A model generated the notes under the pieces. That model saw only the letters and a program-made list of their open reading frames with translations. It was not told the DNA's origin and searched no databases. A stretch of 64,000 bases of DNA from Patescibacteria group bacterium (GTDB lineage: Bacteria; Patescibacteriota; Minisyncoccia; Minisyncoccales; PWPS01), in the NCBI GenBank assembly GCA_051745165.1, contig JBNJDU010000003.1, positions 8,127 to 72,126 on the forward strand, read 5' to 3'. This document shows, in pieces, positions 4,624 to 45,249 of this stretch. How positions within the stretch are numbered: the first letter of the stretch is position 1; each line of letters opens with the position of its first letter. A program made the position numbers and the translations under genes.

Positions 4624-4634
4624 TTTAATTAATT

Positions 4635-9949: not shown

Positions 9950-12347
9950 TTTACCTTTTCAAATTCATATATATTTACCAATAATTCTGGTAATAATCGG
10001 GTTAGTATGGTTTTTGATATTGAGGAGAATAAGAAGAAAGGATTTAGAAAAAGGGCTTAATATGTCCTTGTTTTTAATTAGGCTTCCTAAATACGAACAA
10101 AATGAGAGAAAGTTGTCAATTGAGGAAATTAGATCTTTAATAGGTAAGATGGAGCAATTTTATTCTAATTTTTTATACTTAGAAAAGAAAAGTTTTTTTG
10201 GAACCCCGCCTGAAATAGCTTTTGAAGTTTCTTCTCAAATAGGAGGCTCTGATATATCATTTTTTGTTTCTGTTCCTGATAGATTAAAAACTTCACTGGA
10301 TAAATATGTCCAAGGTATTTTTCCTGGAGCTGTCCTGCAGGAAGTTCCTGAGGATTATACTATTTTTGAACCTGGAGGAGTTGAAAAAGCTTCTTATTTA
10401 CAGCTAAAAAAGCATTACGGATTACCAATTAAAACTTATAAAGAATTAGAAAATGATCCTCTAGAAAGTATAACTAATTCACTTACGAAAATTACTAAGG
10501 ATGAAGGTTCTTCTATTCAATTAATTTTAAAACCAACTAGCTTTAGTTTTAAGAGAAAAATAAATAAAATACAATACTTAATAAAAAAGAAAGGTTTGAG
10601 TTTTTCGCAAGCTACTAGAAAGGCGGAAAGAAGCTTTTTCTTAGATATTATAAAAGAATTTTTTGATATTCTGCTTAATTCATCAAACGATAAAGAAGTA
10701 AAAGAAGATCAAGATTTATTAGAAGCAATTAAGAAAAAAGGAAAGCACCCTGCTTTTGAAGCTAATGTAAGACTTGTGGCGGCTGCAAAACAAAAAGAAA
10801 AAGCAGAAGATGTTTTAAATAATTTAGAAAGTGGATTTTCACAATTCTTTTCTAATTTTAATGGTTTTAGATTTAAAAGAGTAAAAGGAAGACATTTTCA
10901 TAAACTTATAGATAATTATAGTTTTAGAAGATTTAATAAGAAAGAAAAGATGGTATTGAATTTAGAAGAGCTATCTAGTATTTATCACTTCCCTCTTTCT
11001 CATATGAAGACACCATATATTAACTGGGTTAAAACTAAAGAGTCTGCTCCTCCTTCTAATTTACCAGAAAATGGGCCAGTTCTTATTGGGAATGTTGTAT
11101 TTAGAGGAGAAGGTAAAGACGTTTATATTGGATCTCGAGAAGATAGAAGAAGACATGTCTATACTATAGGTCAAACTGGAGTAGGTAAAACTTCTTTAAT
11201 GCAGGAAATGATTAGACAAGATATGGAAAATGGAGAAGGTGTCGGGGTTATAGATCCTCATGGAGACTTAATTGAAGACACTTTAGCTAACGTTCCGAAA
11301 AATAGAATAGATGATGTTGTTTTGTTTGAACCGTTTGACACTAGAAGACCTTGTGGATTGAATATGCTCGAATGGGACATTCCTGAGCAAAAGGATTTTG
11401 CAGTTTCAGAAATGATCTCAATATTCACTCAACTGTTTCCACCGGAAATGATAGGTCCCATGTTTGAGCATTATATGAGAAATGCAATGCTCGCTTTAAT
11501 GGCAGACAAAGAAAATCCAGGAACTTTAGTAGAAATACCAAAAATATTTACGGATGATGACTTTATGAGAGAAAAGGTAAGCAAAGTCTCTGATCCAATG
11601 GTGAGAAACTTTTGGGAAAAAGAATGGCAACAGACTGTTGGTGAGGATAAATCAAAGATGCTTGGGTATGTAGTTTCTAAAGTGGGTCGCTTTGTAGAGA
11701 ACGAGATGATGAGAAATATTATTGGTCAGCAACATTCCAGTTTTGATTTAAGCAAAGTAATGGATGAAGGAAAAATATTTTTAGTTAATTTAACTAAAGG
11801 TCTTACTGGAGAAATGAATAGTTCTTTGTTAGGACTTATTTTAGTTTCTAAGTTGCAAATGGCGGCAATGAAAAGAGTTAATACACCTCAAGAACAAAGA
11901 AAAGATTTTTATCTTTATATTGATGAGTTTCAAAACTTTACGACTGACAGCATAGCTACGATTCTTTCTGAAGCCCGTAAATACAAGCTTAATTTGATTT
12001 TAGCAAACCAATTCATGCCACAACTCAAAGATGAGATTAGAGACGCTGTAATCGGCAATGTGGGTACTATAGCGGCTTACAGAGTAGGTGAAGACGATGC
12101 AGAATTTTTAGAAAACAAATTCTCGCCTGAATTTTCTAGCTTTGATCTTTCTAATATTAGTAATTACCATTATATTACTAAAATGATAGTAGATGGTAAT
12201 GTAACCTCTCCTTTTAAAGTAAAGGCCCCTTATCCACAAGAAGGGGATAAGGGGCAGGTAAAATCTATTAAGAAACTATCTAAACAAAAATACGGAAGAC
12301 CTAAGAAAAAGGTAGAAAATAGAATGAAAGAAAGAGGTATTGTTTAG
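9942..12347 (+). CDS. Membrane-anchored P-loop ATPase of the TraD/TrwB/VirD4 (FtsK-HerA superfamily) coupling-protein type
   Basis: N-terminal TM helix (IYLPIILVIIGLVWFLIL). Walker A GQTGVGKTS followed by VIDPHGDL. Walker B-like FYLYIDEFQNF. C-terminal arrangement typical of T4SS DNA-binding coupling proteins. Confidence 0.75.
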   Translation: MTNLPFQIHIYLPIILVIIGLVWFLILRRIRRKDLEKGLNMSLFLIRLPKYEQNERKLSIEEIRSLIGKMEQFYSNFLYLEKKSFFGTPPEIAFEVSSQIGGSDISFFVSVPDRLKTSLDKYVQGIFPGAVLQEVPEDYTIFEPGGVEKASYLQLKKHYGLPIKTYKELENDPLESITNSLTKITKDEGSSIQLILKPTSFSFKRKINKIQYLIKKKGLSFSQATRKAERSFFLDIIKEFFDILLNSSNDKEVKEDQDLLEAIKKKGKHPAFEANVRLVAAAKQKEKAEDVLNNLESGFSQFFSNFNGFRFKRVKGRHFHKLIDNYSFRRFNKKEKMVLNLEELSSIYHFPLSHMKTPYINWVKTKESAPPSNLPENGPVLIGNVVFRGEGKDVYIGSREDRRRHVYTIGQTGVGKTSLMQEMIRQDMENGEGVGVIDPHGDLIEDTLANVPKNRIDDVVLFEPFDTRRPCGLNMLEWDIPEQKDFAVSEMISIFTQLFPPEMIGPMFEHYMRNAMLALMADKENPGTLVEIPKIFTDDDFMREKVSKVSDPMVRNFWEKEWQQTVGEDKSKMLGYVVSKVGRFVENEMMRNIIGQQHSSFDLSKVMDEGKIFLVNLTKGLTGEMNSSLLGLILVSKLQMAAMKRVNTPQEQRKDFYLYIDEFQNFTTDSIATILSEARKYKLNLILANQFMPQLKDEIRDAVIGNVGTIAAYRVGEDDAEFLENKFSPEFSSFDLSNISNYHYITKMIVDGNVTSPFKVKAPYPQEGDKGQVKSIKKLSKQKYGRPKKKVENRMKERGIV

Positions 12348-12700: not shown

Positions 12701-15700
12701 TTAATTAGCACTTTCTTCTTCCTCTTGCTCTTCTTGAGGAGCTTCCTCTTCTGAGTTTTCAGTTGTTTCGTCTTGATTAGATTCTTCCTTTTCGTTTTGT
12801 TGATCTTCTTCTGTTTGATTATTTTCTAAGTCTTCACTAGATTCAGACTCTTCAATATTTGGTTCAGACTCTTCAATGTCAGGATTGTTGTCAATCCTGT
12901 CAATAATCTCTTCCATAGCCTCCATAGAGGCGGTTAGAGCGAAGCGGTTATCAATGATAGTGTAGTAGATACCAAAGTCTATCTCCTCGCTCATTTCTTC
13001 GTAAGTGGTGTTATCCACAGCTTCTCCTTCTTCAGGGTTAGTTTCAATCTCCTTTTCTCCTTTTTCGGAAAAATTACTTGATACCCATCCTGTAGTTTCC
13101 TCATCGATTCTAATTTCAAACCAACCATTTTCTTCATTTAAAAACTCATGTTCTGTTCCTGCATCAACAGTATCAATTTGCTCTTCATTAACTGAAGAGC
13201 CTGCTCTAACATTTAAACCTTCTTCCCCAACAGAATTGCTAATAACCACAACTTCTTCTGTTTCTGTATCTCCTTCTATGAATTTACCTTCTAGCTCATT
13301 AAACTCGTCATTAGTAATGGCTTCGGTTACTTCATTGTTTTCAGTGTCAACAGTTAAAGCTAAATTATGAGAGGTAGGTCCTTCTTCTGATTCTAAATCA
13401 CTATAACCGGAGTCTTCTGTTTCAAATTCAAAGCGCATTATTGCTCCATCTGGTTCTTCATTAGTTTCTACATGAGTTAAATTACTACCTTCTTTATTTG
13501 TGTAGGTAGGAATATTAGATTCGATCCAACTTTGAATATTTTCTTCTAAAGTTGCTTCGTTTGGATGATGGGTGAAGTGAGAAACTTCATAATCCTTATA
13601 CTCGGTAGTTTTTTGTTCAGAATCAATATCTTCTGTATTATAATTGTGTAGTTGTAGGAAATTAGAGAAGTCTTGAACCATGCTTTCTTCCCATGGAGAA
13701 ATTCCCATATCACGGAAGTCCGCTAATCCCCCTTCTTCAATTTCTCCAATAAATCCTAGAGTGTTTTGCTCTCCTGAATGAACGAAAAGAGTAAATTCAT
13801 CCTTTAGTAAATCTAAGAAATGACCAGTTGGAGGAGAAATTCTTAGGGCGTTGAAAAACTCATTAAGATGCATTACCCTCCTTGGGTTTTCTGATTGATT
13901 TAAAATAATAAGCTCATTAAATGTTGATCCTTCAGCATTTTCCAGTCTACTATTTAAGAATATAGGGACTTCGTCTAAATTAGCAGTAGAAAACTCTCTA
14001 ACTTCATCGTTTTCATTTGTAGGAAAGAGAGTTCTGACTGTTAAAACTTCTTCTATTTCGAAGGTAGTTTTACTTTCGTCTATTGTATTGCCGGCATTAT
14101 CAACTCCTTCTACTTGAGCTTCTATTTCTGAACCTGTTAATTCAGGAGGGAAGCTGTAAGAAACTGTTTCACCATTAAGATTTTCCAATTCTTCTACTTC
14201 TCCCTCTTCTATTTCTGTAGTTAATGACCAGTTAAAGTCAGAGAATTCTCCATCGAATTGAACCTCCATTTCATATTCATAACCTTCAGTTTGTTCAACT
14301 TCTACTCCAAAGATTTCTGGATCAGGTTGTGTATCTTCAGATTCTGGTCCAAAAAATGATGTAATTCCCATTACAACACCAAAAAGGAGTAAAGCAGCAA
14401 CCCCAACAACACCAATTCTAGCAATCATTTTTGATTTGTTAGTTGGTTTTTTGGGTTTATCTTCTGTGATATCAGGAGAACCTTTTTCATCTGAGTCTGA
14501 AGGTGGAGTTGGAGGAGATGATGGAGCTGCTTTTTTATTATTTCCTGGCCCTGATGAAGCACCAATAGGGCGTTCAAAAGCACTATCCTCTTCTTCCTTA
14601 GTATCTTCTTTTTGAGTATCTTGGTTTAAATCTTTATTTAATTCATTTGCTAAATTTTTAGGAGGTGTTGGCTTAGAGTCGCCTTTATCTTTATTTGGCG
14701 TGTCTTCCTTAGTTTCTAGACCTCCTAAGCTTTTAGGTTCTTTTTTTTGAGAGGCTTTGTCTTTCTGAGGTGATTCTTCTTGTGTTTTTCCTTCCACCTT
14801 TTCTTCTAGTCTTTTTAAGAACTCCTCCCTTTCCTTTTCTTCTTCCTCTTCTACTTTATTTTCTTCTCCACCAACCCCATCATTATTATTACTATCTTCT
14901 TTTGATTGTGGTTTTTCTTCTTTTTTATCACTATCTTCTTTTTTCTTCTTTTGGTCATCATCTCCCTCATTCTTATCCGTTTTATTTACACTTGACCTAT
15001 TTGATTGAGGTCCTTTTCTTCTTTGCTGCTTTTCTTTTTTTATTTTTTCTTCCCTCTCCTTTTCTTCTCTTTGAAAATCTTCTTTTGACTTTCCTTCTTC
15101 AATTGCAAAGTTTACATCCTCTAATTCTCCTTTTATTTCATCTTCTCTTCGAGCAATGAGTTGCAATTCTTCTCTTTTGTTTTTAATTTCTTCTAATTCT
15201 TTTTCAAGTTCCCATCTTTCTTTTTCTATTTTTCTCCTTTCTTCTTCAGCATCCCATCTTTTTTCTTCCACCTCCCTTTTCTTATTTGGTTCTTCAGCTA
15301 GTTTTTCTTCCCTCTCAATTTCTTTTCCTTTTTCTTCTATTTCATTTTCGCGTTTTTCTATTTCATTTAAGCGCGTATTTATTTCATCTTCTCTTTTATC
15401 TAGTTCCGATGTTTTTTCTTCAATTGTTTTTCTTAATTCCGAAAATCTACTTAGCTCTTCTTTAAGTTCTTGTTTTTCTCTTTTTGCTTCAATTTGACTT
15501 TTACTCTTATCAAGAGATTCGATTTTATCTTTGAGGTTCTTTTCTTTATTTAAAACTTGTTGATATCTAAGCTCTATTTTGCTTTCTTGCTCTTTTAATT
15601 TTTCAATTTCTTCTTCTACTTCCCATCGTTCCTCTTCAGCTTCTTTTCTTCTTTCCTCCACTCTCCATCGGCGACTTTCTATTGCTCTCTTCTCTTCGGG

Positions 15701-17545
15701 CGTTGAAGCTTCAGCTTCTTTTTCTTCAATTTCTTCTTTTTCTTCTTCTATCTCCTCTTCCCTTTTCTTTAAAAGATTTAATTTCTTATTTAAGTGGTTA
15801 ATTTTTTCTCTCTTTTCAGCTCTTTTTTCAGCTAAGCTTCTCTTTTCTTCTTTTATCGAGTTAAATTCCTTTTTAAGTGTTTCTTTTTCTTCTTCTATCT
15901 CTTCCTTTTCTTTTTCTTTCTTTAAATTATTAACTTTTTCTTTTAAATTCTCCTCCTCACTGATTATATCTTGATATTTGCTTTCAACTTTTCTTTTCCT
16001 TTGCCTTATTCGGTTTAATTTTTCTTCTACACTCCATTCTTTTTCCTCCCACTTTCTTCTCTTTTGTTCAATTTCCCATCTTTCTTTTTCTATTTGTCTT
16101 TTTTCCTCTGGATCTTCAACTAATTTTTCCTTTTCTTCCATCTCTTTCTCTTCAGTCTTTATTTCTTCTAGTGTTTTAATTACATCCTCTAAAGAGCTTT
16201 TAGCTCTTTTCTCTTTTTGCAGTAAACCTTCTTTTTCTACTTCTAGTGTTTTCTTTTCTTTAATTAACTCTTGTATATCGTCCTCTAATTTTTCAATTTC
16301 ACCTTCTGGAGCTAGTGCGTCTTCTTTATGGTCAGTTTTTCTTTCCTCTTTCTTCTTCTGAGATTTTTCTTCTTCACTTCTAAGATCATCAAGCTTAAGC
16401 TCTAATTGAGATTTAACTTCTCTTAAATGAGCTATTTCAGTATTTATTTCTTCTAAATCTTTTTCTAAATCTTTTACTTTTCTCTCTTTTTCCCACCTTC
16501 TATTTTCAACTTCCCTTCTTTCATCTTCTAGTTTCCATCTTTGTTCCTTTAATTCTCTTTGTTTTTTCGGTTCTTTTTCAACATCTTCTTCTTTCTCAAT
16601 CTCTTCTTCTCTTTCTTCAATCTCCTTTTCTTCCTTTATGATCATTTCTAACTCCTCTTCAAGCTGAGTTTTTTGTCCAGAAAGATCAGTTTTTTCTTTT
16701 TTTGTTTTTTGAAGTTTAGAATTTATTTCAGAAAGTTTTTCTTCTAATTTATCTTTATTGTTTGCTATTTTTCCTATACTTCCTGATCTTGCTCTTTTCT
16801 TTTTTAGCTCTCTTTCTTCTCTTTCTGATTTTTTATATTCTCTATCTTTTTGCCTGATTTCTCTTTTCACATCTGATATTTTTTCTTCTAAATCCCACCT
16901 CTTTTCTTCTTGCTCTTTTCTTTCGTCTTCTAAATCCCACCTTTTCTTCTGAAGTTCTCTACGCTTTGAAGAAGTGTTTGCATTTTCAAGTTCTTTTTCA
17001 AGCTCTTTCTTTTTCTTCTCTATACTTTTTTCTTTTTCGATTACTGAGTTTAAATCATTCTCCAGAGAATCTTTTTTTTCTATTAGTTCTTTTTCTTCTT
17101 TTTTTAATTTTTGTTGAAATTCTGGCTTATCAGCTAATTCTTCTTCTGCTTCCTTTCTCTCCTTTTCTTCCTTTCTCTCCTTTTCTTCCTTTATTTCTTC
17201 TCTTAAAGCTTCTTTTTCTTCTTTAAGCTCTTCTTTTTTAGCTTCTATCTTTTCTTTTTCTTTTGGTAGGTTTTTAAGTTCATCTTCCCACTCCCATAGC
17301 TCATCTTCTAGAGCGGCAATTTTATCTTCTAACTTCCACCTTTTTTTCATTATCTCTTCATCCTCTCCTTCTTCCTCCAAGCTGTTTTGTTCTTCTTCAG
17401 CTTTCTTTAGTTTATTTTTTATTTTTTCAATAGATTCTTTTAGCTGCTCTTCTTTTTTGGAGAGTTGTTTTTTTTCTACATTAAGCCCTTCAATCTTTTC
17501 TTCAATTTTCTGAGCTTTCTCTTTTAGTTGTTTAGTGTTTGACAT
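12701..17545 (-). CDS. Giant bitopic protein (1614 aa): ~800-aa repetitive coiled coil, disordered K/E/P-rich linker, one TM helix, extracellular region with SH3b-like domain, acidic tail
   Basis: Long uninterrupted ORF. TM IARIGVVGVAALLLFGVVMGITSFF at about aa 1040-1065, preceded by KPKKPTNKSK (positive-inside). SH3b-like GLNVRAGSSVNEEQIDTV...NGWFEIRIDEETTGWVSSNF at about aa 1443-1492. Confidence 0.85.
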   Translation of the reverse strand: MSNTKQLKEKAQKIEEKIEGLNVEKKQLSKKEEQLKESIEKIKNKLKKAEEEQNSLEEEGEDEEIMKKRWKLEDKIAALEDELWEWEDELKNLPKEKEKIEAKKEELKEEKEALREEIKEEKERKEEKERKEAEEELADKPEFQQKLKKEEKELIEKKDSLENDLNSVIEKEKSIEKKKKELEKELENANTSSKRRELQKKRWDLEDERKEQEEKRWDLEEKISDVKREIRQKDREYKKSEREERELKKKRARSGSIGKIANNKDKLEEKLSEINSKLQKTKKEKTDLSGQKTQLEEELEMIIKEEKEIEEREEEIEKEEDVEKEPKKQRELKEQRWKLEDERREVENRRWEKERKVKDLEKDLEEINTEIAHLREVKSQLELKLDDLRSEEEKSQKKKEERKTDHKEDALAPEGEIEKLEDDIQELIKEKKTLEVEKEGLLQKEKRAKSSLEDVIKTLEEIKTEEKEMEEKEKLVEDPEEKRQIEKERWEIEQKRRKWEEKEWSVEEKLNRIRQRKRKVESKYQDIISEEENLKEKVNNLKKEKEKEEIEEEKETLKKEFNSIKEEKRSLAEKRAEKREKINHLNKKLNLLKKREEEIEEEKEEIEEKEAEASTPEEKRAIESRRWRVEERRKEAEEERWEVEEEIEKLKEQESKIELRYQQVLNKEKNLKDKIESLDKSKSQIEAKREKQELKEELSRFSELRKTIEEKTSELDKREDEINTRLNEIEKRENEIEEKGKEIEREEKLAEEPNKKREVEEKRWDAEEERRKIEKERWELEKELEEIKNKREELQLIARREDEIKGELEDVNFAIEEGKSKEDFQREEKEREEKIKKEKQQRRKGPQSNRSSVNKTDKNEGDDDQKKKKEDSDKKEEKPQSKEDSNNNDGVGGEENKVEEEEEKEREEFLKRLEEKVEGKTQEESPQKDKASQKKEPKSLGGLETKEDTPNKDKGDSKPTPPKNLANELNKDLNQDTQKEDTKEEEDSAFERPIGASSGPGNNKKAAPSSPPTPPSDSDEKGSPDITEDKPKKPTNKSKMIARIGVVGVAALLLFGVVMGITSFFGPESEDTQPDPEIFGVEVEQTEGYEYEMEVQFDGEFSDFNWSLTTEIEEGEVEELENLNGETVSYSFPPELTGSEIEAQVEGVDNAGNTIDESKTTFEIEEVLTVRTLFPTNENDEVREFSTANLDEVPIFLNSRLENAEGSTFNELIILNQSENPRRVMHLNEFFNALRISPPTGHFLDLLKDEFTLFVHSGEQNTLGFIGEIEEGGLADFRDMGISPWEESMVQDFSNFLQLHNYNTEDIDSEQKTTEYKDYEVSHFTHHPNEATLEENIQSWIESNIPTYTNKEGSNLTHVETNEEPDGAIMRFEFETEDSGYSDLESEEGPTSHNLALTVDTENNEVTEAITNDEFNELEGKFIEGDTETEEVVVISNSVGEEGLNVRAGSSVNEEQIDTVDAGTEHEFLNEENGWFEIRIDEETTGWVSSNFSEKGEKEIETNPEEGEAVDNTTYEEMSEEIDFGIYYTIIDNRFALTASMEAMEEIIDRIDNNPDIEESEPNIEESESSEDLENNQTEEDQQNEKEESNQDETTENSEEEAPQEEQEEEESAN
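15214..17341 (-). repeat. Six protein-level modules (~133-153 aa period), each with a paired motif (K/R)RW..E..R(R/K)...E..(R/E)W..E
   Basis: First Trp of each pair at aa 70, 203, 337, 490, 627 and 764. The second Trp follows 14 aa later in five modules and 14-16 aa later in the first module. Confidence 0.8.
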
Positions 17546-21014: not shown

Positions 21015-21671
21015 TTAATCTTCACTAGGCAATTCCATATCTGAAGGTCTTTCTATCTCTACTTCACACATTGGTTGAGTTTTAATTCCTTCGCTTCCCC
21101 ACTCAATTTCCCAATCCATAAATCCAGAAATTATAAGTGTTATTATAGCCCAGGAAAAGTAAGCTAAAAATAATCCTAAAGCTGCATATTTTAAAGCATC
21201 TATAGCTTTATTAGTTTTCTCTGGATTTCCAGTAGAAACAATCATTGTCACTCCGGCACCTACTATTACTATAAGGGCTATAGCAGGAATTAAGCCTCCT
21301 AAAACAAAACTTATTACCCTGTCAAATATCATAAAAAGATGACAAAGACTACAAGGGACAAATGTTTCGGGAGAAGAACCACCTTTTCCAAGTGCTTCTG
21401 ATGAGCAGCGATGTATTTCATCTAACTCTTTACTAAAGAAGTTTTGAATATCTCCGCTACTTGATTCTACAGAAAGACACCTTCCGCAAGGAACCATTCC
21501 ATCATATTCTACTTCTAAAGATCCACTTATTGGATCTCCTTGTTGGTCTTCACCTATTACATTTATGTTGTAAGTTTCAGACTCTTGATATTCTTCTGCC
21601 TCGTCTGCCTCCGATATTTGCGGAACAAATATAATGAAAGCAGCTAAAATTAGGATAATAAACTTCTTCAT
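21015..21671 (-). CDS. Secreted/membrane protein resembling TrbC/VirB2-type (T4SS-pilin-like) proteins, with an extra N-terminal Cys-containing domain
   Basis: Signal peptide MKKFIILILAAFIIFVPQISEA. CxxC pairs. Two C-terminal TM helices separated by STGNPEKTNKAIDALKYA, a layout I associate with T4SS pilin-like families. Confidence 0.55.
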   Translation of the reverse strand: MKKFIILILAAFIIFVPQISEADEAEEYQESETYNINVIGEDQQGDPISGSLEVEYDGMVPCGRCLSVESSSGDIQNFFSKELDEIHRCSSEALGKGGSSPETFVPCSLCHLFMIFDRVISFVLGGLIPAIALIVIVGAGVTMIVSTGNPEKTNKAIDALKYAALGLFLAYFSWAIITLIISGFMDWEIEWGSEGIKTQPMCEVEIERPSDMELPSED

Positions 21672-35786: not shown

Positions 35787-36335
35787 ATGATTTATTATTT
35801 AGACGGAAAAATAGCAATAAAAAAAGACGATTTTGTAGTAATAGATACTAATGGAGTGGGACGTAAAGCTTATATGTCTCCTGACGCAGTTAAAAACTTG
35901 CCACCAGTAGGAGAAAACTTTAAATTATTCTGCTACTTGAATATTGGTAGAAATTCAGAAAGACTTTATGGATTTCCGACCAAGGAAAACTTAGAATTCT
36001 TTGAAAGCCTTATTAATTTATCTGGAATCGGGCCAAAGACAGCAGTTCAAGTTGCCTCTATAGCTCCTATGGAAGAGATGAAAAAGGCAATTAAAAATGA
36101 CAATCAAGAAGTTTTGGATAAGATTTTTGATATTGGTAAGAAAAGAGGTCAACGGGTTATTTTTGAACTTTCTAGAAGAATTAAAGAAGCTCCTGAAGAA
36201 GATGGTGTTGTTCAAACTTTGGTTTCTCTAGGGTTTTCAAAAAAGGACGCTAGTGCAGCACTCAAAGGAGTGTCAAAAGATAAATCTGTTGATGAAAGAG
36301 TAAAAGAAGCCTTAAAACTTTTAGACAATGGTTAA
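35787..36335 (+). CDS. ruvA: Holliday junction DNA helicase subunit RuvA
   Basis: MIYYLDGKI..., LYGFPTKENLEFFESLINLSGIGPKTA (HhH). Confidence 0.88.
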   Translation: MIYYLDGKIAIKKDDFVVIDTNGVGRKAYMSPDAVKNLPPVGENFKLFCYLNIGRNSERLYGFPTKENLEFFESLINLSGIGPKTAVQVASIAPMEEMKKAIKNDNQEVLDKIFDIGKKRGQRVIFELSRRIKEAPEEDGVVQTLVSLGFSKKDASAALKGVSKDKSVDERVKEALKLLDNG

Positions 36336-37590
36336 AAATAAAATAAGAAAAATAACACCTAAGTTTGTAATCAAATTTTATCATTGGTTATGGTCTTTAT
36401 TAAGTGGAGTGGCTTATGGATTCCCTAGTAAAGAACTCACTGTTGTTGGTGTAACAGGAACTAATGGAAAATCAACTACCGTAAAGCTAATAACAGAGAT
36501 TTTAAAGGAGGCAGATAAAAAAGTAGCCGTAATATCATCTATTAATTTTGAAGTTAATGGAGAGAGAAGGAAGAACTTAATGAAGATGACTATGCCCGGG
36601 AGAGGTTTTATTCATAAGTTTATGAGGGAGGCAGTAGAGAAGGATTGTGATTATTTTGTATTAGAAGTGACTTCAGAAGGAATTGAACAATATAGGCATA
36701 AATTTATTGAATTTGATATTGCCGTGATAACAAATTTATCTCCTGAGCATATAGAATCACATGGTAGCTTTAAAAAATATAGAAAAGCAAAGGGTAAATT
36801 TTTTAAAGCAACTAATAAAACTCATATTTTAAATTCTGACGATGAGCACATGGAATATTTTAAAGGATTTAAAGCTCAGAAAAAATATGGGTATGGATTT
36901 AAAGAAATAGTTGATTTTGACAAGCAGGTTCAGGGTAGTAATTTTATTTCTAAGGAGGTTGGGATTGAATTTCAAGTCGCTGGTGAAAAGTTTGAATTAT
37001 CGTTATTTGGGAAATTTAATGCTTATAATGGATTGGCAGCTATAGCTGTAGGGCAAGAACTAGAAATAGATAGTAAAAATATAAAGAAAGCGTTAAGAAG
37101 AGTAACTGGCATTCCTGGAAGAATGGAAAAGGTAATAGATCAAGAATTTACAGTTTTTGTTGATTATGCTTTTACACCTAATGCTTTAGAAAAAGTTTAT
37201 GATTCTATTATTAAAAAGCTGAATCCAAATAATTTAATTGTAGTGCTTGGTTCTTGTGGGGGTGGTAGAGATAAGTGGAAACGGCCTGTTTTAGGAGAAA
37301 TAGCTGCTAAATTTGCTGATGAAATAATTGTTACTAACGAAGATCCTTATGATGAGGACCCTAAAGAAATAATTAATCAAGTAGCTGAAGGCACTAAAGG
37401 AAAAGCTCTGAAAATAATTGATAGAAGAAAAGCTATAAATAAAGCTCTTGATCTAGCTAATAATGGAGATGTGGTAGTGATTACAGGAAAGGGGTCGGAG
37501 TCATGGATCCAAGTTAAAAATGGTAAAAAAATACCGTGGGATGATCGAGAAGTAGTGAAAGAAGAGTATGAAAAAATATCCGAAAACTAA
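36328..37590 (+). CDS. murE: Mur ligase, MurE-like (UDP-MurNAc-L-Ala-D-Glu:diamino acid ligase), short form
   Basis: GVTGTNGKSTT, VLEVTSEG, NLSPEHIESHG, VDYAFTPNALEKV, GCGGGRDKWKRPVLGEIA, VTNEDPYDEDP. Confidence 0.82.
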   Translation: MVKNKIRKITPKFVIKFYHWLWSLLSGVAYGFPSKELTVVGVTGTNGKSTTVKLITEILKEADKKVAVISSINFEVNGERRKNLMKMTMPGRGFIHKFMREAVEKDCDYFVLEVTSEGIEQYRHKFIEFDIAVITNLSPEHIESHGSFKKYRKAKGKFFKATNKTHILNSDDEHMEYFKGFKAQKKYGYGFKEIVDFDKQVQGSNFISKEVGIEFQVAGEKFELSLFGKFNAYNGLAAIAVGQELEIDSKNIKKALRRVTGIPGRMEKVIDQEFTVFVDYAFTPNALEKVYDSIIKKLNPNNLIVVLGSCGGGRDKWKRPVLGEIAAKFADEIIVTNEDPYDEDPKEIINQVAEGTKGKALKIIDRRKAINKALDLANNGDVVVITGKGSESWIQVKNGKKIPWDDREVVKEEYEKISEN

Positions 37591-37602
37591 ATTTATAATC
37601 AA

Positions 37603-38544
37603 ATGAATATAAAAGATATATACGAATTAGCGATAAAAGAAGGTAAAAAAGCTGATTTTAGAGGAGAAAAGGGAATAAATTGGAAACTTTCTCGAACTAA
37701 AAAGGAGTATGAAAATCTATCTGAAGAAAAGAAAGAGTTTTTTGATGAAGAAAGGCTAAATAATCCTTACAGTGATACTAGAATTTTACACGGAGATCCA
37801 GAAACAGAAGTAAAAAAGATTTTAGTGGGTATTGATATTGATGGAGAAGAACTTTTACTTGCAAAAGAAATGGAAGATATAGATTTAGTTATTTCTCACC
37901 ATCCTCGCGGGCAAGCATTAGCTGGATTGGATGATGTTATGGACTTGCAAATTGATATGCTCAATCATTACGGAGTGCCAATAAATATAGCTGAAAAATT
38001 ACTTAAAAAGAGAATCAAAGAAGTTTCTAGGGGTCTTTCTCCTGGAAATCATCAACGAGCAGTAGATATGGCTCGGCTTTTAGACATTCCTCTAATGTCA
38101 ATTCACACTCCGTGTGATAATTTGGTGGCTAAATTTGTAGAAGAAAAATTAGAAAAAGATAACCCTCGATTATTAAAAGACGTATTAGAATCTTTGTTAG
38201 AAATACCGGAATATCGAGAAGCGGAGAAATTGGGAGTAGGACCTAAATTGTTTGTTGGTAGTAAAAAAAATAGATCTGGAAAGATAGTATTAACTGAAAT
38301 TACTGGAGGAACAGAAGGATCTCCTGAAATTTATGAAAAATTAGCGGATGCGGGAGCAGGAACTATTATTGGAATGCATATATCAGAAAAACATCGTAAA
38401 GAGGCGCAAAAAGCGCATATTAACGTTGTTATTGCTGGTCATATGTCTTCTGATTCAATTGGAGTGAATTTGTTTTTAGATAAACTTGAAGATGTTGAAA
38501 TAATTCCTTGTTCTGGATTTATTAGAAATAAAAGAAATAAATGA
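37603..38544 (+). CDS. NIF3-family (DUF34) dinuclear metal centre protein
   Basis: DLVISHHP and C-terminal GHMSSD motifs, with an insertion domain between them. Confidence 0.75.
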   Translation: MNIKDIYELAIKEGKKADFRGEKGINWKLSRTKKEYENLSEEKKEFFDEERLNNPYSDTRILHGDPETEVKKILVGIDIDGEELLLAKEMEDIDLVISHHPRGQALAGLDDVMDLQIDMLNHYGVPINIAEKLLKKRIKEVSRGLSPGNHQRAVDMARLLDIPLMSIHTPCDNLVAKFVEEKLEKDNPRLLKDVLESLLEIPEYREAEKLGVGPKLFVGSKKNRSGKIVLTEITGGTEGSPEIYEKLADAGAGTIIGMHISEKHRKEAQKAHINVVIAGHMSSDSIGVNLFLDKLEDVEIIPCSGFIRNKRNK

Positions 38545-39386
38545 AAAAACTTGTAAAAGTCTTTTTAATTGAATTTATCTTCTTTTTAGCTACTTTGCTT
38601 TTAGGAATTTTAGTAACGATTAAATTGGAAGATATTTTTCAGATTACAGAAGCAGCAACTAAATCTTCCGGTGATCTTATCACCCCTCTTGGCTTTATTG
38701 TTTATTTTGTAATTGCGACTTTGGTAGTTTATTTAATTTCAAAGAGTAAACGGCTTGAAAAAGGAAGACTTTTACTATTTAAAATAACATTTCTGTTTTC
38801 CGTTTTTTTAGGAGGGCTCGTTACTCTTTCAACGATTACCTTTGAACTTTTTTCTTTAGTTTTAATTATTAGTTTACTTATTTTATGGAGTAAAAAACCT
38901 ATTATTTTACTTCATAATCTATTAGTTGTAATTTCAATAGCTGGTATAGGGGCAATAATAGGAAGAGAATTTGAACCATTAGTAATTGCTGTATTTCTGG
39001 CTTTATTTTCTATTTACGATTTTGTTGCAGTTTACAAAACAAAGCATATGGTTAAAATGGCAACTGAAATGATTAAAACGAAAGCTATTATGGGACTTAT
39101 TATCCCTTTTTCTTTTTCTGGACTTTTGGATAATTTAGAGGATAAAAATAAAAAAGAATTTATGGTTTTAGGTGGAGGTGATTTGGCTTTCCCTCTCTTT
39201 TTAGTTTCATCCATAACTTTAACTTACGGAGTAAAGGAAGCGTTATTTTTGGTTTTCTTTTCTTCTTTAGGGCTTTTTATTTCTTTTTACTTATTTTTAA
39301 GTCAAAAAAAGCAAAAACCAATCCCGGCCCTTCCGCCGATTGCTTTATCTTCTTTAATTGGATATTTACTCTTAACTTTAATCTAG
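38541..39386 (+). CDS. Presenilin / signal-peptide-peptidase family (GxGD, peptidase A22-like) intramembrane aspartyl protease homologue
   Basis: Polytopic membrane protein with SIYDFVAVYKTKHM (YD), VLGGGDLAFP (GxGD) and IPALPP (PAL) motifs in the canonical order. Confidence 0.75.
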   Translation: MKKLVKVFLIEFIFFLATLLLGILVTIKLEDIFQITEAATKSSGDLITPLGFIVYFVIATLVVYLISKSKRLEKGRLLLFKITFLFSVFLGGLVTLSTITFELFSLVLIISLLILWSKKPIILLHNLLVVISIAGIGAIIGREFEPLVIAVFLALFSIYDFVAVYKTKHMVKMATEMIKTKAIMGLIIPFSFSGLLDNLEDKNKKEFMVLGGGDLAFPLFLVSSITLTYGVKEALFLVFFSSLGLFISFYLFLSQKKQKPIPALPPIALSSLIGYLLLTLI

Positions 39387-39407: not shown

Positions 39408-39459
39408 GAGAGAGGTCGAACCTCTCCCAACCTAAAGAGAGGCTAAGCCTCTCTTTTTT
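39408..39459. terminator. Two adjacent hairpins between convergent genes (GAGAGGT-cga-ACCTCTC; AGAGAGGC-taa-GCCTCTCT + T run)
   Basis: The second hairpin followed by TTTTT fits a plus-strand terminator. The first may serve the minus-strand gene. Confidence 0.55.
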
Positions 39460-39460
39460 A

Positions 39461-41008
39461 TTAATTATTGAGTGATTTAATCATGTAAGTGTCTTTTAGT
39501 TTGTAGCCGTTTTTCCTCCAATAGCCTCTGGCTCCGACTCCAGAAATAACACTTATTTTATTTGTGGGTGCTAATTTTTCGGCCTCTTTCACTAATTTTT
39601 TTCCTAAACCTTTATGTTGAGGAGATGTTGCTAGTATTTCTCCGTTTTTGATCATTGTTTGCTGTCCATAAGTATGAATTTCACGAATAATCGTGCTATT
39701 TTCCAGTACTTCGGGATAAGGATCTTTAGGGATTCTCATTCTTAACAGGCTGAACAATTTAGTTCTTTCTTTATTTTCAAAAGTTAAAACAATCTCTTTT
39801 CCTTCAGAGGCTTTATATTCTTTTTTAAAGAGGCGCAAATCTTCGTTTGGATCGTAATTGTCTTTTACTTCTCTACATCTAATACAATTACACCTCCACC
39901 CTTCTCGTTTAGCTTTTTTTGATAGTTTTTCTCTTAAATTTGAAGATCCTCCCCCAGCAACAACACTTTGGGCTGGTATATCTCTAATTACCCTTTGAAT
40001 CCTAACCCAGTAAGGAATAATTTCTTTTTTAATTTTACTTAAAAGCTTAATTAGCTCTTCCTCATTGTAAGGAGCGTAATCTCCACTTTTATAAAGATCA
40101 TAAAGAGGAGCTTCTTTTAAGACCATGCAGGGATATACTTTTAAAAAGTCAGGTTTGAATCTTTGATCTTGAAAAAGAATTTTGAACATTTCAAGATCCC
40201 TTTCAAAAGTTGACCCGGGAAGATCCGGCATTACTTGATAGCAAACCTTAAAGCCGGCGTCTTTTAATTTCTTAGTCGCCTCTACGGTTTCTTTTACGCC
40301 GTGTCCTCTTTTGTTTTTCTTTAAAACATCTTCATACACACTTTGAACTCCAATTTCAACCATGGTAATTCCTAATTTACGGAGATGTTTTATTTCTTCC
40401 TTATCGATGTAGTCTGGCCTGGTTTCAATTGATAAGGTGACCATTTTGTGATCCGCAGTTTCATTTTCCTTTTGAGCTTGTTTTAGAGTATCTGCTTCTT
40501 TTTCATTTAAAGCTTCGAAGCATGGTTTAACAAACTCTTCTCTGTATTCTTTACTATAATAAGACCAAGTTTCTCCAACTATTCTAACTTCAACCTTATC
40601 AGTTGGATGACCGGTTTTAGTCAAAGATGTTATTCTATTTTGAACTTGTTTTTTAGGATCAAAGTGATTTAGTTTTGCTCGCATTACAGCTGGTTCATTA
40701 TCTAAGTAACTCTTTGGAGCACCTTCTTGAGCTGGGCAATAGATGCATTCCCCCGGGCAAGCGTGAGATTTAGTTAGTACAGAAACGTTCACCACGCCGG
40801 ATAAAGAGCGAACCGGCCTAAGTCTTAAAGCGGCTTCCAGCCTTTTATCTTTAACATTCATATTTCGGTAAACCTCAATTAAATCCACATTTGGTGGACA
40901 ATTTGTTTTATATTTTTTACAAACATCCCGCTTAGTTTGATCAACTATTTCTCGAGATATTTTATCTTTTTTTAGTAGTTCTTCTACTATTTCTTTTTCT
41001 AAAGACAT
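39461..41008 (-). CDS. elp3: Elp3-type radical SAM + GNAT enzyme (tRNA U34 cm5 modification family)
   Basis: Radical SAM cluster motif CPGECIYCP, the central Elp3-like TIM region, and a C-terminal GNAT (HKGLGKKLVKEAEKLA). 515 aa. Confidence 0.88.
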   Translation of the reverse strand: MSLEKEIVEELLKKDKISREIVDQTKRDVCKKYKTNCPPNVDLIEVYRNMNVKDKRLEAALRLRPVRSLSGVVNVSVLTKSHACPGECIYCPAQEGAPKSYLDNEPAVMRAKLNHFDPKKQVQNRITSLTKTGHPTDKVEVRIVGETWSYYSKEYREEFVKPCFEALNEKEADTLKQAQKENETADHKMVTLSIETRPDYIDKEEIKHLRKLGITMVEIGVQSVYEDVLKKNKRGHGVKETVEATKKLKDAGFKVCYQVMPDLPGSTFERDLEMFKILFQDQRFKPDFLKVYPCMVLKEAPLYDLYKSGDYAPYNEEELIKLLSKIKKEIIPYWVRIQRVIRDIPAQSVVAGGGSSNLREKLSKKAKREGWRCNCIRCREVKDNYDPNEDLRLFKKEYKASEGKEIVLTFENKERTKLFSLLRMRIPKDPYPEVLENSTIIREIHTYGQQTMIKNGEILATSPQHKGLGKKLVKEAEKLAPTNKISVISGVGARGYWRKNGYKLKDTYMIKSLNN

Positions 41009-41028
41009 ATATGTTAATTAGGTGGTTA

Positions 41029-41056
41029 ATTATAGCTGTACTCAGTCATAATTCAA
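41029..41056 (-). promoter_or_regulatory. sigma70-like promoter for elp3 (TTGAAT-16-TATAAT)
   Basis: -35 at 41056-41051 and -10 at 41034-41029 on the minus strand. Confidence 0.5.
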
Positions 41057-41061
41057 ATTAT

Positions 41062-41091
41062 TTGATTTTTAATCCGCTAGCGGGTTATACT
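41062..41091 (+). promoter_or_regulatory. sigma70-like promoter for the methyltransferase gene (TTGATT-18-TATACT) with palindrome CCGCTAGCGG in the spacer
   Basis: TTGATT at 41062-41067, TATACT at 41086-41091, palindrome at 41074-41083. Confidence 0.5.
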
Positions 41092-41100
41092 ACTAGTGAT

Positions 41101-41790
41101 ATGAATTTTGATAAATACATACTAGATAAAACAAGAGAAGATTACAATTTAATAGGTGATAAATTTTCCAATACTAGGCATAAACCTTGGCAAGAGTTTG
41201 AGTTTTTATTTGAAGACATTCCTCAAAAAGCTAAAGTTTTAGACCTTGGCTGCGGGAATGGGAGATTTTTTGACGCTTTAAAAGAGAAGCAAGTTGACTA
41301 TATTGGATTAGATAAATCAGAAAAATTAATTTTAAAAGCTAAGGATAAATTTCCCGAAGCTAATTTTGAAATTGGAGACGGGTTGAATATGCCCTTTGCC
41401 GACGATTATTTTGATTACGTTTTTTCTATAGCAGTTCTTCATCATATGCCCTCAGAGGAGACCAGGGTGCAATTTTTAAAAGAAGTTAAGCGAGTGTTAA
41501 AAAAGAATGGTGAAGTCAGGTTGTCAGTTTGGAATTTAATTAATGCTAAAAAAAGCATTTATTTTAAAAACTTTAAAGAAAAAGCAGAAGGCAAAATTGG
41601 TTTTAGAGATGCTTTTATACCTTGGAAAAATAATAAAGGAAAGGTTGTTACAGAAAGATACTACCACTTTTTTAAGGAAAATGAACTTAAAAAAATAGCT
41701 AAAAAAGCTGGACTCAAAGTAGAGAAAGTTTTTACTAAAGGAGAAGGTGTAAAATCAAATATATTTCTTTTCGCAACTAATGAGAGTTAA
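41101..41790 (+). CDS. Class I SAM-dependent methyltransferase resembling Trm9/ALKBH8-type tRNA (mcm5U34) methyltransferases
   Basis: FSNTRHKPW, VLDLGCGNGRF, FSIAVLHHMPSEETRVQFLKEVKRVLKKNGEVRLSVWN parallel the Trm9/ALKBH8 MTase motifs as I recall them. Start placed at ATG 41101, downstream of the promoter. Confidence 0.7.
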   Translation: MNFDKYILDKTREDYNLIGDKFSNTRHKPWQEFEFLFEDIPQKAKVLDLGCGNGRFFDALKEKQVDYIGLDKSEKLILKAKDKFPEANFEIGDGLNMPFADDYFDYVFSIAVLHHMPSEETRVQFLKEVKRVLKKNGEVRLSVWNLINAKKSIYFKNFKEKAEGKIGFRDAFIPWKNNKGKVVTERYYHFFKENELKKIAKKAGLKVEKVFTKGEGVKSNIFLFATNES

Positions 41791-42112
41791 GTATATTAGT
41801 CCAACAAAAATTGAAATTGCTGATCAGGAGTACAAAGAAACAATTTTAGTTTCTTCAGAAGGTGTTATCTTTTCTTGGCAAGAAAAAAAGATGATAGAAA
41901 AAGAAGATTTGATTAGATTCATAAAAGAAGCACCGGATTTACTTGTTATTGGGACTAATAAAAATGTTAAAAGTGTCTCTGTAGATGGGCAAAAATTTTT
42001 AAAAGAAAAAGGAATTATTTTAGTAGTTGATAAACTCTTCGAAGCAGTTAACGTTTTTAACAAAGCTACAAAAAGCGACAAAAAAATATTAGCCCTCTTT
42101 CCTCTTGGTTAG
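41780..42112 (+). CDS. Mth938-domain (DUF498-like) protein, 110 aa
   Basis: LLVIGTNKNVK...FLKEKGIILVV...EAVNVFN...KKILALFPL pattern. Overlaps the methyltransferase gene by 11 nt. Confidence 0.6.
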   Translation: MRVKYISPTKIEIADQEYKETILVSSEGVIFSWQEKKMIEKEDLIRFIKEAPDLLVIGTNKNVKSVSVDGQKFLKEKGIILVVDKLFEAVNVFNKATKSDKKILALFPLG

Positions 42113-42121
42113 TTAAAAGAC

Positions 42122-42152
42122 TTGACAAATTTTAAGAAAAGGTTAGTATTAT
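42122..42152 (+). promoter_or_regulatory. sigma70-like promoter of the greA leader (TTGACA-16-TAGTAT, or 19-nt spacer to TATTAT)
   Basis: TTGACA at 42122-42127 and TAGTAT/TATTAT at 42144-42152, about 185 nt upstream of the greA ATG. Confidence 0.6.
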
Positions 42153-42194
42153 AGCACCGATGGATAATTGGCTCACCCGGTAAAAAAGAATCTC

Positions 42195-42225
42195 ATTTCT
42201 TGTTTTGAAGAAATAGTTTCTTTTT
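42195..42225 (+). promoter_or_regulatory. Terminator-like hairpin in the greA leader (ATTTCTT-gttttg-AAGAAAT + TTTCTTTTT)
   Basis: 7-bp A/T-rich stem followed by a T-rich run. Confidence 0.4.
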
Positions 42226-42283
42226 AACCTTTTAAATAATATATAAGCAATATACTTTTCCGGGGTTATCAAGATATAAGCCA

Positions 42284-42340
42284 ATGAAAAAAGAAATTTA
42301 TCGACCTCCCTGGATACAAGGGAGGTTTAATCTTATATGA
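42284..42340 (+). promoter_or_regulatory. 18-codon uORF (MKKEIYRPPWIQGRFNLI) overlapping the greA start in ATGA; contains hairpin CCTCCC-N9-GGGAGG (42305-42325) that pairs the greA SD
   Basis: Read directly. The uORF stop TGA at 42338-42340 overlaps the greA ATG at 42337-42339. Confidence 0.35.
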
Positions 42341-43521: not shown

Positions 43522-45249
43522 ATGAAAAATAAAAAATTAGCTGACATTTTAAATAGGATTGCTGATTATTTAGAAATGGATGATGTGGATTATAAACCGT
43601 TTGCCTATCAAAGGGCGGCAAACTCTATCTTAGAATTGGAAAAGCCAATTAATGAAATTTATGAAGAAGAAGGACGCGAAGGAATTGAACAAATTTCTGG
43701 GATTGGAGAGGCGATTGCTGATAAAGTAGAAGAATATCTGCTTACAGGCGAAGTTGAACACCTAGAAAGATTAAAAGAAAAGTTTCCTATAGACATGGAT
43801 AATTTATTACGGGTTGAAGGTTTAGGGCCTAAAAGCATTAAAAAATTATATGAAGAATTGGACATTAAAAATTTGAAGGAGTTAAAAGAAAAGGCTGAAA
43901 ATAATGAAATTGCCAACTTAAAAGGGTTTGGTGATAAAACAGAAAAAAATATACTGGAAGCAATTGATTTTTTGGAAAAGGATGAAGGAAAGTGGTCTCT
44001 TGGAGAGGTTTTACCGGTGGCAAATGAAATTTTTGAGGAATTAAAAAATTTAAAAGAAGTGAAAAAGATAAGTTTTGCTGGGTCGTTGAGAAGAAAAAAA
44101 GAGCTGGTCGGGGATGTAGATATTTTAGTATCTGCTTCTAGAACTAAACAAATAATGAATAAATTTACTTCTTTTAGCAGGGTAGAAAAGGTTTTGGGTC
44201 AAGGTGATACAAAATCTTCAATTAAATTACAAGAAGGGTTTGATGTTGATATTCGAGTTGTAGAAAAAGCTAGTTTTGGATCAGCTTTACAATACTTTAC
44301 TGGGTCTAAAAGCCACAATATTCGAGTTAGAAAAATTGCTATAGCAAAAGGCTTTAAGTTAAATGAGTACGGTCTTTTCAAAGACGGGAAGAAAGTTGCT
44401 GGAAAAACAGAGGAAGGAATTTATAAAAAACTAGGAATGACTTACATACCTCCGGAGATTAGGGAGGATAGAGGTGAAGTTGAAGAGGCTCAGAAAGGAA
44501 ATAAATTTAGTTTGTGTGAGCTTTCTGATATTAAGGGGGATTTACATACTCATACTACTTGGACAGGTGGGAAACAATCTGTAGAGGAAATGGCGCGAGC
44601 TGCTAATGAGTTAGGGTATGATTATATTGGAATTGCAGACCACACTAAATATTTACAAGTTGAAAATGGGTTAGACGAAGAAGAACTAGAAAAGCAACGG
44701 AAAGAAATAAATAAAGTAAATAACAAGCTTAAAAAAGAAGGATTAGACTTTAAAATTCTTCAAGGGTGTGAAGCAAATATTTTAAAAGATGGATCTTTAG
44801 ATATATCTGACGAGAGTTTAAAAAAAATAGATTATGTAATTGCCGGAATTCATTCTCATTTTAAATTAGAGAAAAAAGAGATGACTAAGAGGTTGATAAA
44901 GGCTATAAAACACCCTCAAGTTAATATTATCTCCCATCCTACAGGAAGATTGATTAAAAAAAGAGAATCACTTAATTTAGACATCAATAAAATATTAAAA
45001 ATTGCTAAAGAAGAAGCAGTTATTCTAGAAATAAATTCTTCACCTCATCGACTTGATTTATCTGATAAATATATAAAGCAGTGCATTGAAAACAATCAAT
45101 ATTTGGTAATAAATAGTGATGCTCACCATAAAGATCAACTAAAGAATATGAAGTATGGAATTAATCAAGCTCGCAGAGGTTGGGCAGAAAGTAAAGATAT
45201 TGTTAACACTAAGAAGATAACTAAATTACTAGAAATACTTAATAAATGA
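43522..45249 (+). CDS. polX: Family X DNA polymerase with C-terminal PHP domain (PolX)
   Basis: HhH motifs (GIGEAIADK, GLGPKSIKK), the GSLRRKKELVGDVDIL catalytic region, and PHP (GDLHTHTTWTGG...DHT...SDAHH). Confidence 0.9.
   Translation: MKNKKLADILNRIADYLEMDDVDYKPFAYQRAANSILELEKPINEIYEEEGREGIEQISGIGEAIADKVEEYLLTGEVEHLERLKEKFPIDMDNLLRVEGLGPKSIKKLYEELDIKNLKELKEKAENNEIANLKGFGDKTEKNILEAIDFLEKDEGKWSLGEVLPVANEIFEELKNLKEVKKISFAGSLRRKKELVGDVDILVSASRTKQIMNKFTSFSRVEKVLGQGDTKSSIKLQEGFDVDIRVVEKASFGSALQYFTGSKSHNIRVRKIAIAKGFKLNEYGLFKDGKKVAGKTEEGIYKKLGMTYIPPEIREDRGEVEEAQKGNKFSLCELSDIKGDLHTHTTWTGGKQSVEEMARAANELGYDYIGIADHTKYLQVENGLDEEELEKQRKEINKVNNKLKKEGLDFKILQGCEANILKDGSLDISDESLKKIDYVIAGIHSHFKLEKKEMTKRLIKAIKHPQVNIISHPTGRLIKKRESLNLDINKILKIAKEEAVILEINSSPHRLDLSDKYIKQCIENNQYLVINSDAHHKDQLKNMKYGINQARRGWAESKDIVNTKKITKLLEILNK

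Follow-up and report, generated by a model that had tools for sequence, protein, structure and literature searches.

A 64,000-nucleotide stretch of the Patescibacteria group contig JBNJDU010000003.1 (the window, always taken at its full length) carries, between positions 39461 and 42112, three genes that are the subject of this study: a gene for an Elp3 protein, a divergent gene for a class I S-adenosylmethionine (SAM) methyltransferase and, overlapping the end of the latter, a gene for a small DUF498 (Mth938) domain protein. We consider it probable that this locus specifies a two-step wobble-uridine modification pathway of the archaeal/eukaryotic type in Patescibacteria (the candidate phyla radiation, CPR), and that the DUF498 gene, most likely unrelated to the pathway, became its neighbor through gene loss. 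In the first step, stand-alone Elp3 would use SAM and acetyl-CoA or acetate to place a carboxymethyl group on C5 of the wobble uridine (U34), yielding 5-carboxymethyluridine (cm5U). In the second, the methyltransferase, an enzyme of the Trm9 type, would use SAM to esterify the carboxylate with a methyl group and produce 5-methoxycarbonylmethyluridine (mcm5U34). The first step is predicted from membership in the Elp3 family, the second from residue conservation and gene linkage. Modifications of the mcm5U type, and Trm9 itself, are usually presented as eukaryotic or archaeal.

Pairing of the Elp3 and methyltransferase genes across phyla

In the window, the Elp3 and methyltransferase genes are transcribed divergently from starts separated by a 92-nt spacer (41009-41100), an arrangement already reported in the preliminary description of this DNA, which was made without database searches, and confirmed here. 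Searching the methyltransferase family alignment against one genome per species (185,579 species) confirmed at least 423 loci, and the analysis uses the best 80 of them. These 80 derive from many classes of Patescibacteria, from Anaerolineales and other Chloroflexota, from Fermentibacteria and Thermoanaerobaculia, and from a few archaea. An Elp3 gene was found within 6 kb of the methyltransferase gene in 68 of them: directly upstream on the opposite strand in 56 loci, with a median start-to-start gap of about 23 nt; divergent at a distance of 0.9-3 kb in nine; and nearby in some other orientation in three. Elp3 was absent within about 6 kb in nine further loci, and three were truncated. No other gene family is common to more than 15 of the 80 methyltransferase loci. 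The linkage also holds in related loci of Chloroflexota (Anaerolineales).

The head-to-head pairing of the two genes across phyla is the strongest evidence that the methyltransferase would act on the Elp3 product. It is by gene linkage only that the enzyme can be placed downstream of Elp3; the pattern supports the view that the two genes are a functionally linked pair and would form a conserved module.

Some loci with CPR-like Elp3-Trm9 pairs bear taxonomic labels that seem at odds with what they encode: L003 (Pacearchaeota), L026, L031, L044, L048 and L049 (Gammaproteobacteria). The L003 methyltransferase nests within the CPR clade of the tree described below; mis-binning or a recent transfer between CPR and DPANN organisms might account for it.

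Elp3

The Elp3 gene (39461-41008, minus strand) is a full-length open reading frame (ORF) of 515 codons, and its product can be assigned securely from its sequence. The protein matches the whole of TIGR01211 (profile positions 1-522 of 522) with 553.8 bits, where the cut-off is 350, and contains the Pfam domains ELP3_N, Radical_SAM and Radical_SAM_C. The radical-SAM cysteine motif CPGECIYC, the site of the [4Fe-4S] cluster, lies at residues 84-91 (40736-40759, minus strand) and lines up with the corresponding motif of M. infernus Elp3. The motif CNCIRC at residues 373-378 (39875-39892, minus strand) supplies three linker cysteines, which in bacterial and archaeal Elp3 bind zinc (PMC6367351). 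The acetyl-CoA-binding motif QHKGLG, at residues 464-469 (39602-39619, minus strand), aligns with the lysine acetyltransferase (KAT) domain of structure 6ia8, within an alignment that spans residues 18-512. Thus, the early recognition of a full-length Elp3 that joins a CPGECIYC radical-SAM domain to a C-terminal acetyltransferase domain of the Gcn5-related (GNAT) type proved genuine.

Among the closest solved relatives, the M. infernus enzyme scores 427 bits, that of D. mccartyi 348 and the eukaryotic Elp3 proteins about 320. By these scores the window protein is closer to archaeal than to bacterial Elp3 (427 versus 348 bits), and it carries the archaeal-type N-terminal extension in addition to its radical-SAM and acetyltransferase (KAT/GNAT) parts. 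On the basis of family membership (PMC13315578, PMC6367351), the window protein is a predicted tRNA U34 carboxymethylase forming cm5U.

A methyltransferase of the Trm9 type

The methyltransferase gene (41101-41790, plus strand) encodes 229 amino acids. The longest ORF starts at 41011; the product that begins at the ATG at 41101 is the one annotated by NCBI (100% identity), and it is this 229-residue version that homologues match end to end. The protein contains the motifs FSNTRHKPW, LDLGCGNG and SIAVLHH, from which the preliminary description had recognized a Trm9-like enzyme. That identification is supported by several comparisons. In a search of PDB sequences the best match was Yarrowia lipolytica Trm9 (5cm2_Z), with 81 bits against 54.5 for the next entry and about 27% identity; a profile built from 31 family members raised these values to 97.7 bits for Trm9 and 76.8 for the runner-up. 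The Trm9 alignment alone extends from the N-terminal motif TRxxPW as far as the PW...RYYH hairpin of the C-terminal region; the other matches are limited to the SAM-binding core. The AlphaFold model of the methyltransferase (predicted local distance difference test, pLDDT, 92.1; predicted template modeling score, pTM, 0.90) likewise found its best PDB fold match in 5cm2_Z, with a target TM-score of 0.84.

One could envision that the enzyme is instead a generic Methyltransf_11 protein (UbiE-, BioC- or CmoM-like) that came to lie beside Elp3 by chance. This would agree with the output of curated libraries, which give generic domains and whose best NCBIfam matches (the DVU_1556 family and UbiE) fall far under their cut-offs; the UbiE and MenG models, for instance, score 50-52 bits, with cut-offs of 158-235. 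A hidden Markov model (HMM) built from 21 fungal Trm9 sequences tells a different story, matching the window protein with 125.5 bits (E 1e-38) and, at E <= 1e-3, none of the other window ORFs and none of six E. coli methyltransferases (CmoM, UbiE, UbiG, BioC, CmoA and CmoB). In a neighbor-joining tree, the window protein, the other bacterial and archaeal homologues and fungal Trm9 formed one clade that excluded the E. coli enzymes (bootstrap 76). The outgroup of this tree included E. coli K-12 SmtA (L170:18538-19323), now annotated as CmoM. Since the fungal HMM passes over the E. coli enzymes and the tree sets them outside the Trm9 clade, the grouping with UbiE-like proteins that might have undone the early identification was not found. 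Together with the conservation of Trm9-specific catalytic residues (see below) and the presence of Elp3 at 68 of 80 loci spread over several phyla, these results make a chance association of a generic enzyme highly improbable. The methyltransferase is thus, by sequence, of the Trm9 type and not UbiE-like. Some of its homologues already carry the label "TRM9" in JGI automatic annotation.

Active-site residues and predicted product

Eight residues of yeast Trm9 (R29, D72, H116, W145, W168, R241, Y243 and N271) are required for its activity, and their replacement by alanine abolishes function (Létoquart et al., PMC4678810). Direct alignment pairs the first seven with R26, D71, H115, W144, W175, R186 and Y188 of the window protein; N220, which falls outside the pairwise alignment, is the presumed equivalent of N271. 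A second histidine, H114, stands beside H115. When conservation was counted over 73 prokaryotic homologues, R26, D71 and W144 were each found in 72, H115 in 70, R186 in 63, W175 in 61 (with Phe in another 10), N220 in 57 and Y188 in 32 (again with Phe in another 10). Hence R26, D71, H115, W144, W175 and R186 are each kept in 84-99% of the set. On the strength of this conservation and of the linkage to Elp3, the protein is a predicted tRNA cm5U34 carboxyl O-methyltransferase forming mcm5U, and mcm5U34 is the likely product. Candidate substrates would be tRNAs with U34, such as the Gly-UCC, Arg-UCG and Pro-UGG species encoded nearby. In yeast, the Gly-UCC tRNA carries mcm5U.

A variant of this scheme, which we regard as unlikely, is that the methyltransferase does act with Elp3 and yet has a different substrate or product: some other Elp3-derived side chain, a restricted set of tRNAs or, through 2-thiolation, the 2-thio derivative mcm5s2U. 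Archaeal precedents lend it some appeal. Haloferax lacking Trm9 shows no accumulation of cm5U, a sign that archaeal pathways branch (PMC6144793); Thermoplasma contains the carbamoylmethyl derivative ncm5U rather than mcm5U (PMC5372719). Furthermore, the residues equivalent to yeast Y243 and R241 vary in part of the family. However, R26, H114/H115, R186 and N220, which have been proposed to keep the cm5U carboxylate and uracil ring in place, are without exception found in the window protein.

Points against the proposed pathway

Several observations weigh against a two-step pathway ending in mcm5U. To our knowledge, all characterized Trm9 enzymes require the partner protein Trm112, and mcm5U has so far gone unreported in bacteria. 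A search of ORFs of at least 35 codons in the window and in 89 related loci (L001-L089), made with a zinc-knuckle/GIP regular expression and with phmmer (queries: E. coli YcaR and an approximate yeast Trm112 sequence), detected no Trm112-like protein, which is a weak negative. Within the methyltransferase family, the residue equivalent to yeast Y243 is Tyr or Phe in only 42 of the 73 homologues. The bootstrap support for the Trm9 clade is moderate, the Trm9 fold match leads those to other class I enzymes by little, as one would expect for such a fold, and Pfam and NCBIfam return generic class I matches of which none exceeds an equivalog cut-off. Finally, the overlap between the methyltransferase and DUF498 genes is retained across syntenic relatives down to 57% methyltransferase identity, and a lineage-specific link between the two is thus possible.

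The partner question and the DUF498 neighbor

Of the six hydrophobic residues of Yarrowia Trm9 that are buried by Trm112, two (V59 and F78) are matched by K45 and D66 of the window protein, and polar residues prevail at these positions across the family. We considered taking such substitutions as evidence of independence from Trm112 and rejected this as indecisive. The equivalent positions are polar in archaeal homologues too, and because these share the pattern, it leaves the need for a partner undecided. The methyltransferase would probably act alone or with a partner encoded elsewhere.

The preliminary description had put forward the DUF498 protein as a substitute for Trm112. Its gene (41780-42112, plus strand) overlaps that of the methyltransferase by 11 nt (41780-41790), as had been noted, and encodes a 110-residue protein matching PF04430 with 55.2 bits (cut-off 33; profile positions 3-108 of 109). 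The protein has no PDB sequence match at E <= 0.1 and, in the Pfam scan, no match to PF03966 (COG2835, the Trm112 zinc knuckle); queried against an index of 5.8 billion proteins (an insensitive word index), it returned only itself. In its full form, the proposal holds that a diverged DUF498 protein was captured in this lineage as a small activating subunit of the Trm9-type methyltransferase, replacing Trm112 and matched to the enzyme through translational coupling. Were this true, it would provide the first molecular function for the Mth938 fold (NDUFAF3, AAMDC), that of a methyltransferase cofactor.

Part of the evidence is compatible with such a capture. An overlap of 4-11 nt is retained in seven syntenic genomes whose methyltransferases are 57-76% identical, and the DUF498 gene is intact in all seven. 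The window-clade protein has diverged and lost a GTG motif, as it might on acquiring a new function; no Trm112-like ORF turned up nearby, in the window or the 89 loci; and the polar residues K45 and D66 in place of V59 and F78 imply that the partner surface, if any, differs. The last of these points is non-discriminating, as archaeal homologues share the polar positions. The persistence of the overlap in the six closest lineages (11, 11, 11, 8, 4 and 8 nt) is similarly open to another reading, for the whole block SPP-Elp3-methyltransferase-DUF498-GreA-HD-PolX (SPP standing for signal peptide peptidase) is syntenic across them, and they therefore do not count as independent observations. Overlaps are in any case commonplace: 9 of the 26 same-strand neighbor pairs in the window overlap, including the functionally unrelated GreA/HD hydrolase pair (11 nt) and the PolX/YkuD pair (4 nt).

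Outside this one syntenic clade the adjacency disappears. A DUF498 HMM found a gene within 6 kb of the methyltransferase in only 4 of the 80 species-level loci and adjacent to it in none. In these four loci, the methyltransferase gene is followed by a SLOG-cluster-4 gene, a gene for a small Peptidase_U32_C-like barrel, further genes (MgtC in some), a gene for a PHP-like protein of 415 residues, DUF498 and greA, so that in the wider relatives DUF498 lies 3-5 kb downstream of the methyltransferase, behind the PHP-like gene. A metagenome scan was made with four canonical CPR DUF498 sequences and describes the canonical, not the diverged window subfamily; in none of the 80 loci that it provided does the methyltransferase gene adjoin DUF498. 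The PHP-like gene lies upstream in 39 of these loci, and in seven the methyltransferase is found at 2.7 kb or more. Homologues of the SLOG4, U32_C-like and PHP-like genes, the three looked for, are all missing from the 64-kb window. The simplest reading of these data is that DUF498 became the neighbor of the methyltransferase gene in this clade because the genes lying between them in relatives (SLOG4, U32_C-like, MgtC and PHP) were deleted.

We conclude that recruitment of the DUF498 protein as an activating partner is improbable, and the idea that it stands in for Trm112, drawn from an adjacency confined to one clade, did not survive comparison with other genomes. In this lineage the DUF498 gene is probably co-transcribed with that of the methyltransferase and no part of the pathway. 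Our literature search, too, turned up no link between DUF498 and tRNA modification. A less radical possibility is that the bacterial Trm9 enzyme is partner-free and that the Elp3-Trm9 cassette may replace MnmE/MnmG in reduced genomes. When essentially every window ORF of 100 codons or more was scanned with Pfam, no MnmE, MnmG, MnmA or Trm112 was found in these 64 kb, which are a fraction of the genome.

The window-clade DUF498 protein lacks the "IGTG" motif of canonical CPR DUF498 proteins, to which it is 27-35% identical; the loss suggests that constraint was relaxed or altered following the rearrangement. In wider loci of the Paceibacteria type (L015:2643-6573; L001, L002, L014, L020 and L090-L169), a conserved block lies 3' of the Trm9-type gene, comprising SLOG-cluster-4 (PF18306), a barrel of 84-130 residues resembling Peptidase_U32_C and EF-Tu domain 2, MgtC, the PHP-like protein of about 415 residues, DUF498, sometimes a radical-SAM gene, and greA. 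U32-family proteins include RNA hydroxylases, and given this, the small U32_C-like barrel beside a tRNA-modification pair may merit attention.

Promoters and other intergenic elements

The 92-nt spacer contains two promoter-like elements back to back. One, TTGAAT-16-TATAAT (41056-41029, minus strand; 10 of 12 consensus matches), faces the Elp3 gene; the other, TTGATT-18-TATACT (41062-41091, plus strand; 9 of 12), faces the methyltransferase and DUF498 genes. Their presence had been described before, and they were found again here. The frequency of promoter-like matches in this AT-rich stretch is by itself at chance level (7 found versus 9.6 +/- 3.5 in shuffled sequences). In five or six syntenic relatives, both pairs of hexamers have been retained while the sequence of the spacer varies, which argues that both promoters are probably real. 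The -10 hexamer of the Elp3 promoter is identical in all seven syntenic sequences, with the -35 hexamer conserved in most, and for the methyltransferase promoter TTG..TT and TATAAT are kept in relatives L081, L083, L085 and L087. In our model, these sigma-70-type promoters would drive both genes, and with the two lying back to back in so short a spacer, Elp3 and methyltransferase could be expressed together.

The spacer of the methyltransferase promoter includes a perfect palindrome, CCGCTAGCGG (41074-41083), to which the preliminary description had assigned a possible operator role. The palindrome exists where it was reported; its role as an operator was rejected. It is absent from all six syntenic relatives, even though most of them keep the -35 and -10 hexamers on either side of it, and GC-rich 10-bp palindromes are about as frequent in the window as in shuffled sequences (7 versus 5.7 +/- 2.5). 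The palindrome is most likely a chance feature.

Beyond its 3' end, the Elp3 gene faces a convergent gene (38541-39386, plus strand) for an intramembrane aspartyl protease of the presenilin/signal-peptide-peptidase type (PF06550, 72 bits). Two terminator-like hairpins lie between the two genes, at 39430-39406 on the minus strand and at 39434-39456 on the plus strand; the pair would close both convergent transcripts, leaving Elp3 monocistronic. The protease belongs to a family of archaeal/eukaryotic type and, in several CPR loci (L001, L008, L081-L088), occurs in synteny with Elp3.

Other genes in and around the window

The window, part of a metagenome-assembled Patescibacteria genome, has a G+C content of 33% and contains a bacterial transfer-messenger RNA gene and four tRNA genes (Lys-CUU, Arg-UCG, Gly-UCC and Pro-UGG). 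Its remaining genes form a typical bacterial housekeeping set. Downstream of DUF498, the greA gene is preceded by a leader of about 190 nt (within 42113-42336) with a near-consensus promoter-like TTGACA-16-TAGTAT element (42122-42149) and an AT-rich hairpin that has a run of T residues behind it; it has no Rfam match. Downstream of GreA and the HD hydrolase, in conserved synteny, comes a DNA polymerase of family X whose C-terminal domain is of the PHP type (43522-45249, plus strand). On the other side of the locus, a Mur ligase gene (36328-37590) is directly followed by NIF3 (37603-38544), the position at which close relatives carry an RtcB RNA ligase gene (L081:165-1589, L083:107-1531, L088:1-1056). 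Farther away, two large leucine-rich-repeat proteins, a TrwB/HerA-like coupling ATPase, a 1614-residue bacterial-SH3 protein and a type IV secretion pilin are encoded at 2875-7514 (minus), 9942-12347 (plus), 12701-17545 (minus) and 21015-21671 (minus); the cluster looks like a CPR cell-surface or type-IV-like apparatus.

Discussion

The component families described here, and the pathway itself, are already known. The spread of the pairing in bacteria is a modest surprise, contrary to earlier literature. A 2017 review stated that bacterial homologues of Trm112-dependent methyltransferases were not detectable and that Trm9 in archaea was confined to Sulfolobales and Halobacteriales (PMC5372719), and our literature search turned up no paper on a bacterial Elp3-Trm9 pair or on Elp3 or Trm9 in Patescibacteria. 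Contrary to that review, a Trm9-type enzyme with an intact active site is widespread in Patescibacteria and Anaerolineae, its gene nearly always lying head to head with that of Elp3. If the proposed pathway operates, mcm5U or a derivative of it should be present in bacterial tRNA. The locus also offers biochemists small Trm9 enzymes that are possibly independent of Trm112, and it bears on two wider issues: how split codon boxes are decoded in reduced CPR genomes, and how CPR bacteria exchange genes with DPANN or other archaea. At the same time, the analysis removes a tempting but unsupported function for the Mth938 domain. The window protein of 110 residues resembles the Mth938/NDUFAF3/AAMDC group (DUF498, PF04430) in matching the full domain; its clade differs in lacking the GTG motif, and no member of the group has a known role in tRNA modification.

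Among characterized bacterial enzymes, the Elp3 of Dehalococcoides mccartyi is likewise stand-alone and composed of radical-SAM and KAT domains. The window protein differs in keeping a long N-terminal ELP3_N region and in being closer to archaeal Elp3. For the second step, E. coli CmoM (SmtA) belongs to a different pathway, the CmoA/CmoB route to uridine 5-oxyacetic acid (cmo5U34); the Trm9 HMM does not detect it, and in the tree it stands apart from the Trm9 clade. As a class I methyltransferase that esterifies a carboxyl side chain of the wobble uridine, it is nonetheless the closest bacterial functional analogue.

The eukaryotic system, in which Elongator is followed by Trm9-Trm112 (ALKBH8-TRMT112), shares with the window locus the expected conversion of cm5U to mcm5U and the eight residues essential in yeast, N220 being the presumed eighth. 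In contrast to that system, the locus has no Elongator accessory subunits, and two central hydrophobic contacts with Trm112 are replaced by polar residues. In archaea, the Trm9-Trm112 complex of Haloferax volcanii (HVO_1032) makes mcm5U, and the Elp3 and Trm9 genes cluster in Sulfolobus (PMC6144793). The window locus differs from the archaeal system in its bacterial host, in the absence of a detectable Trm112 gene nearby and in having its two genes head to head rather than merely clustered. In other respects the two are alike: a stand-alone Elp3 without Elp1, 2, 4, 5 and 6 that carries the N-terminal extension and the zinc cysteines, and a Trm9-type methyltransferase with the same catalytic residues, encoded by genes that are physically clustered.

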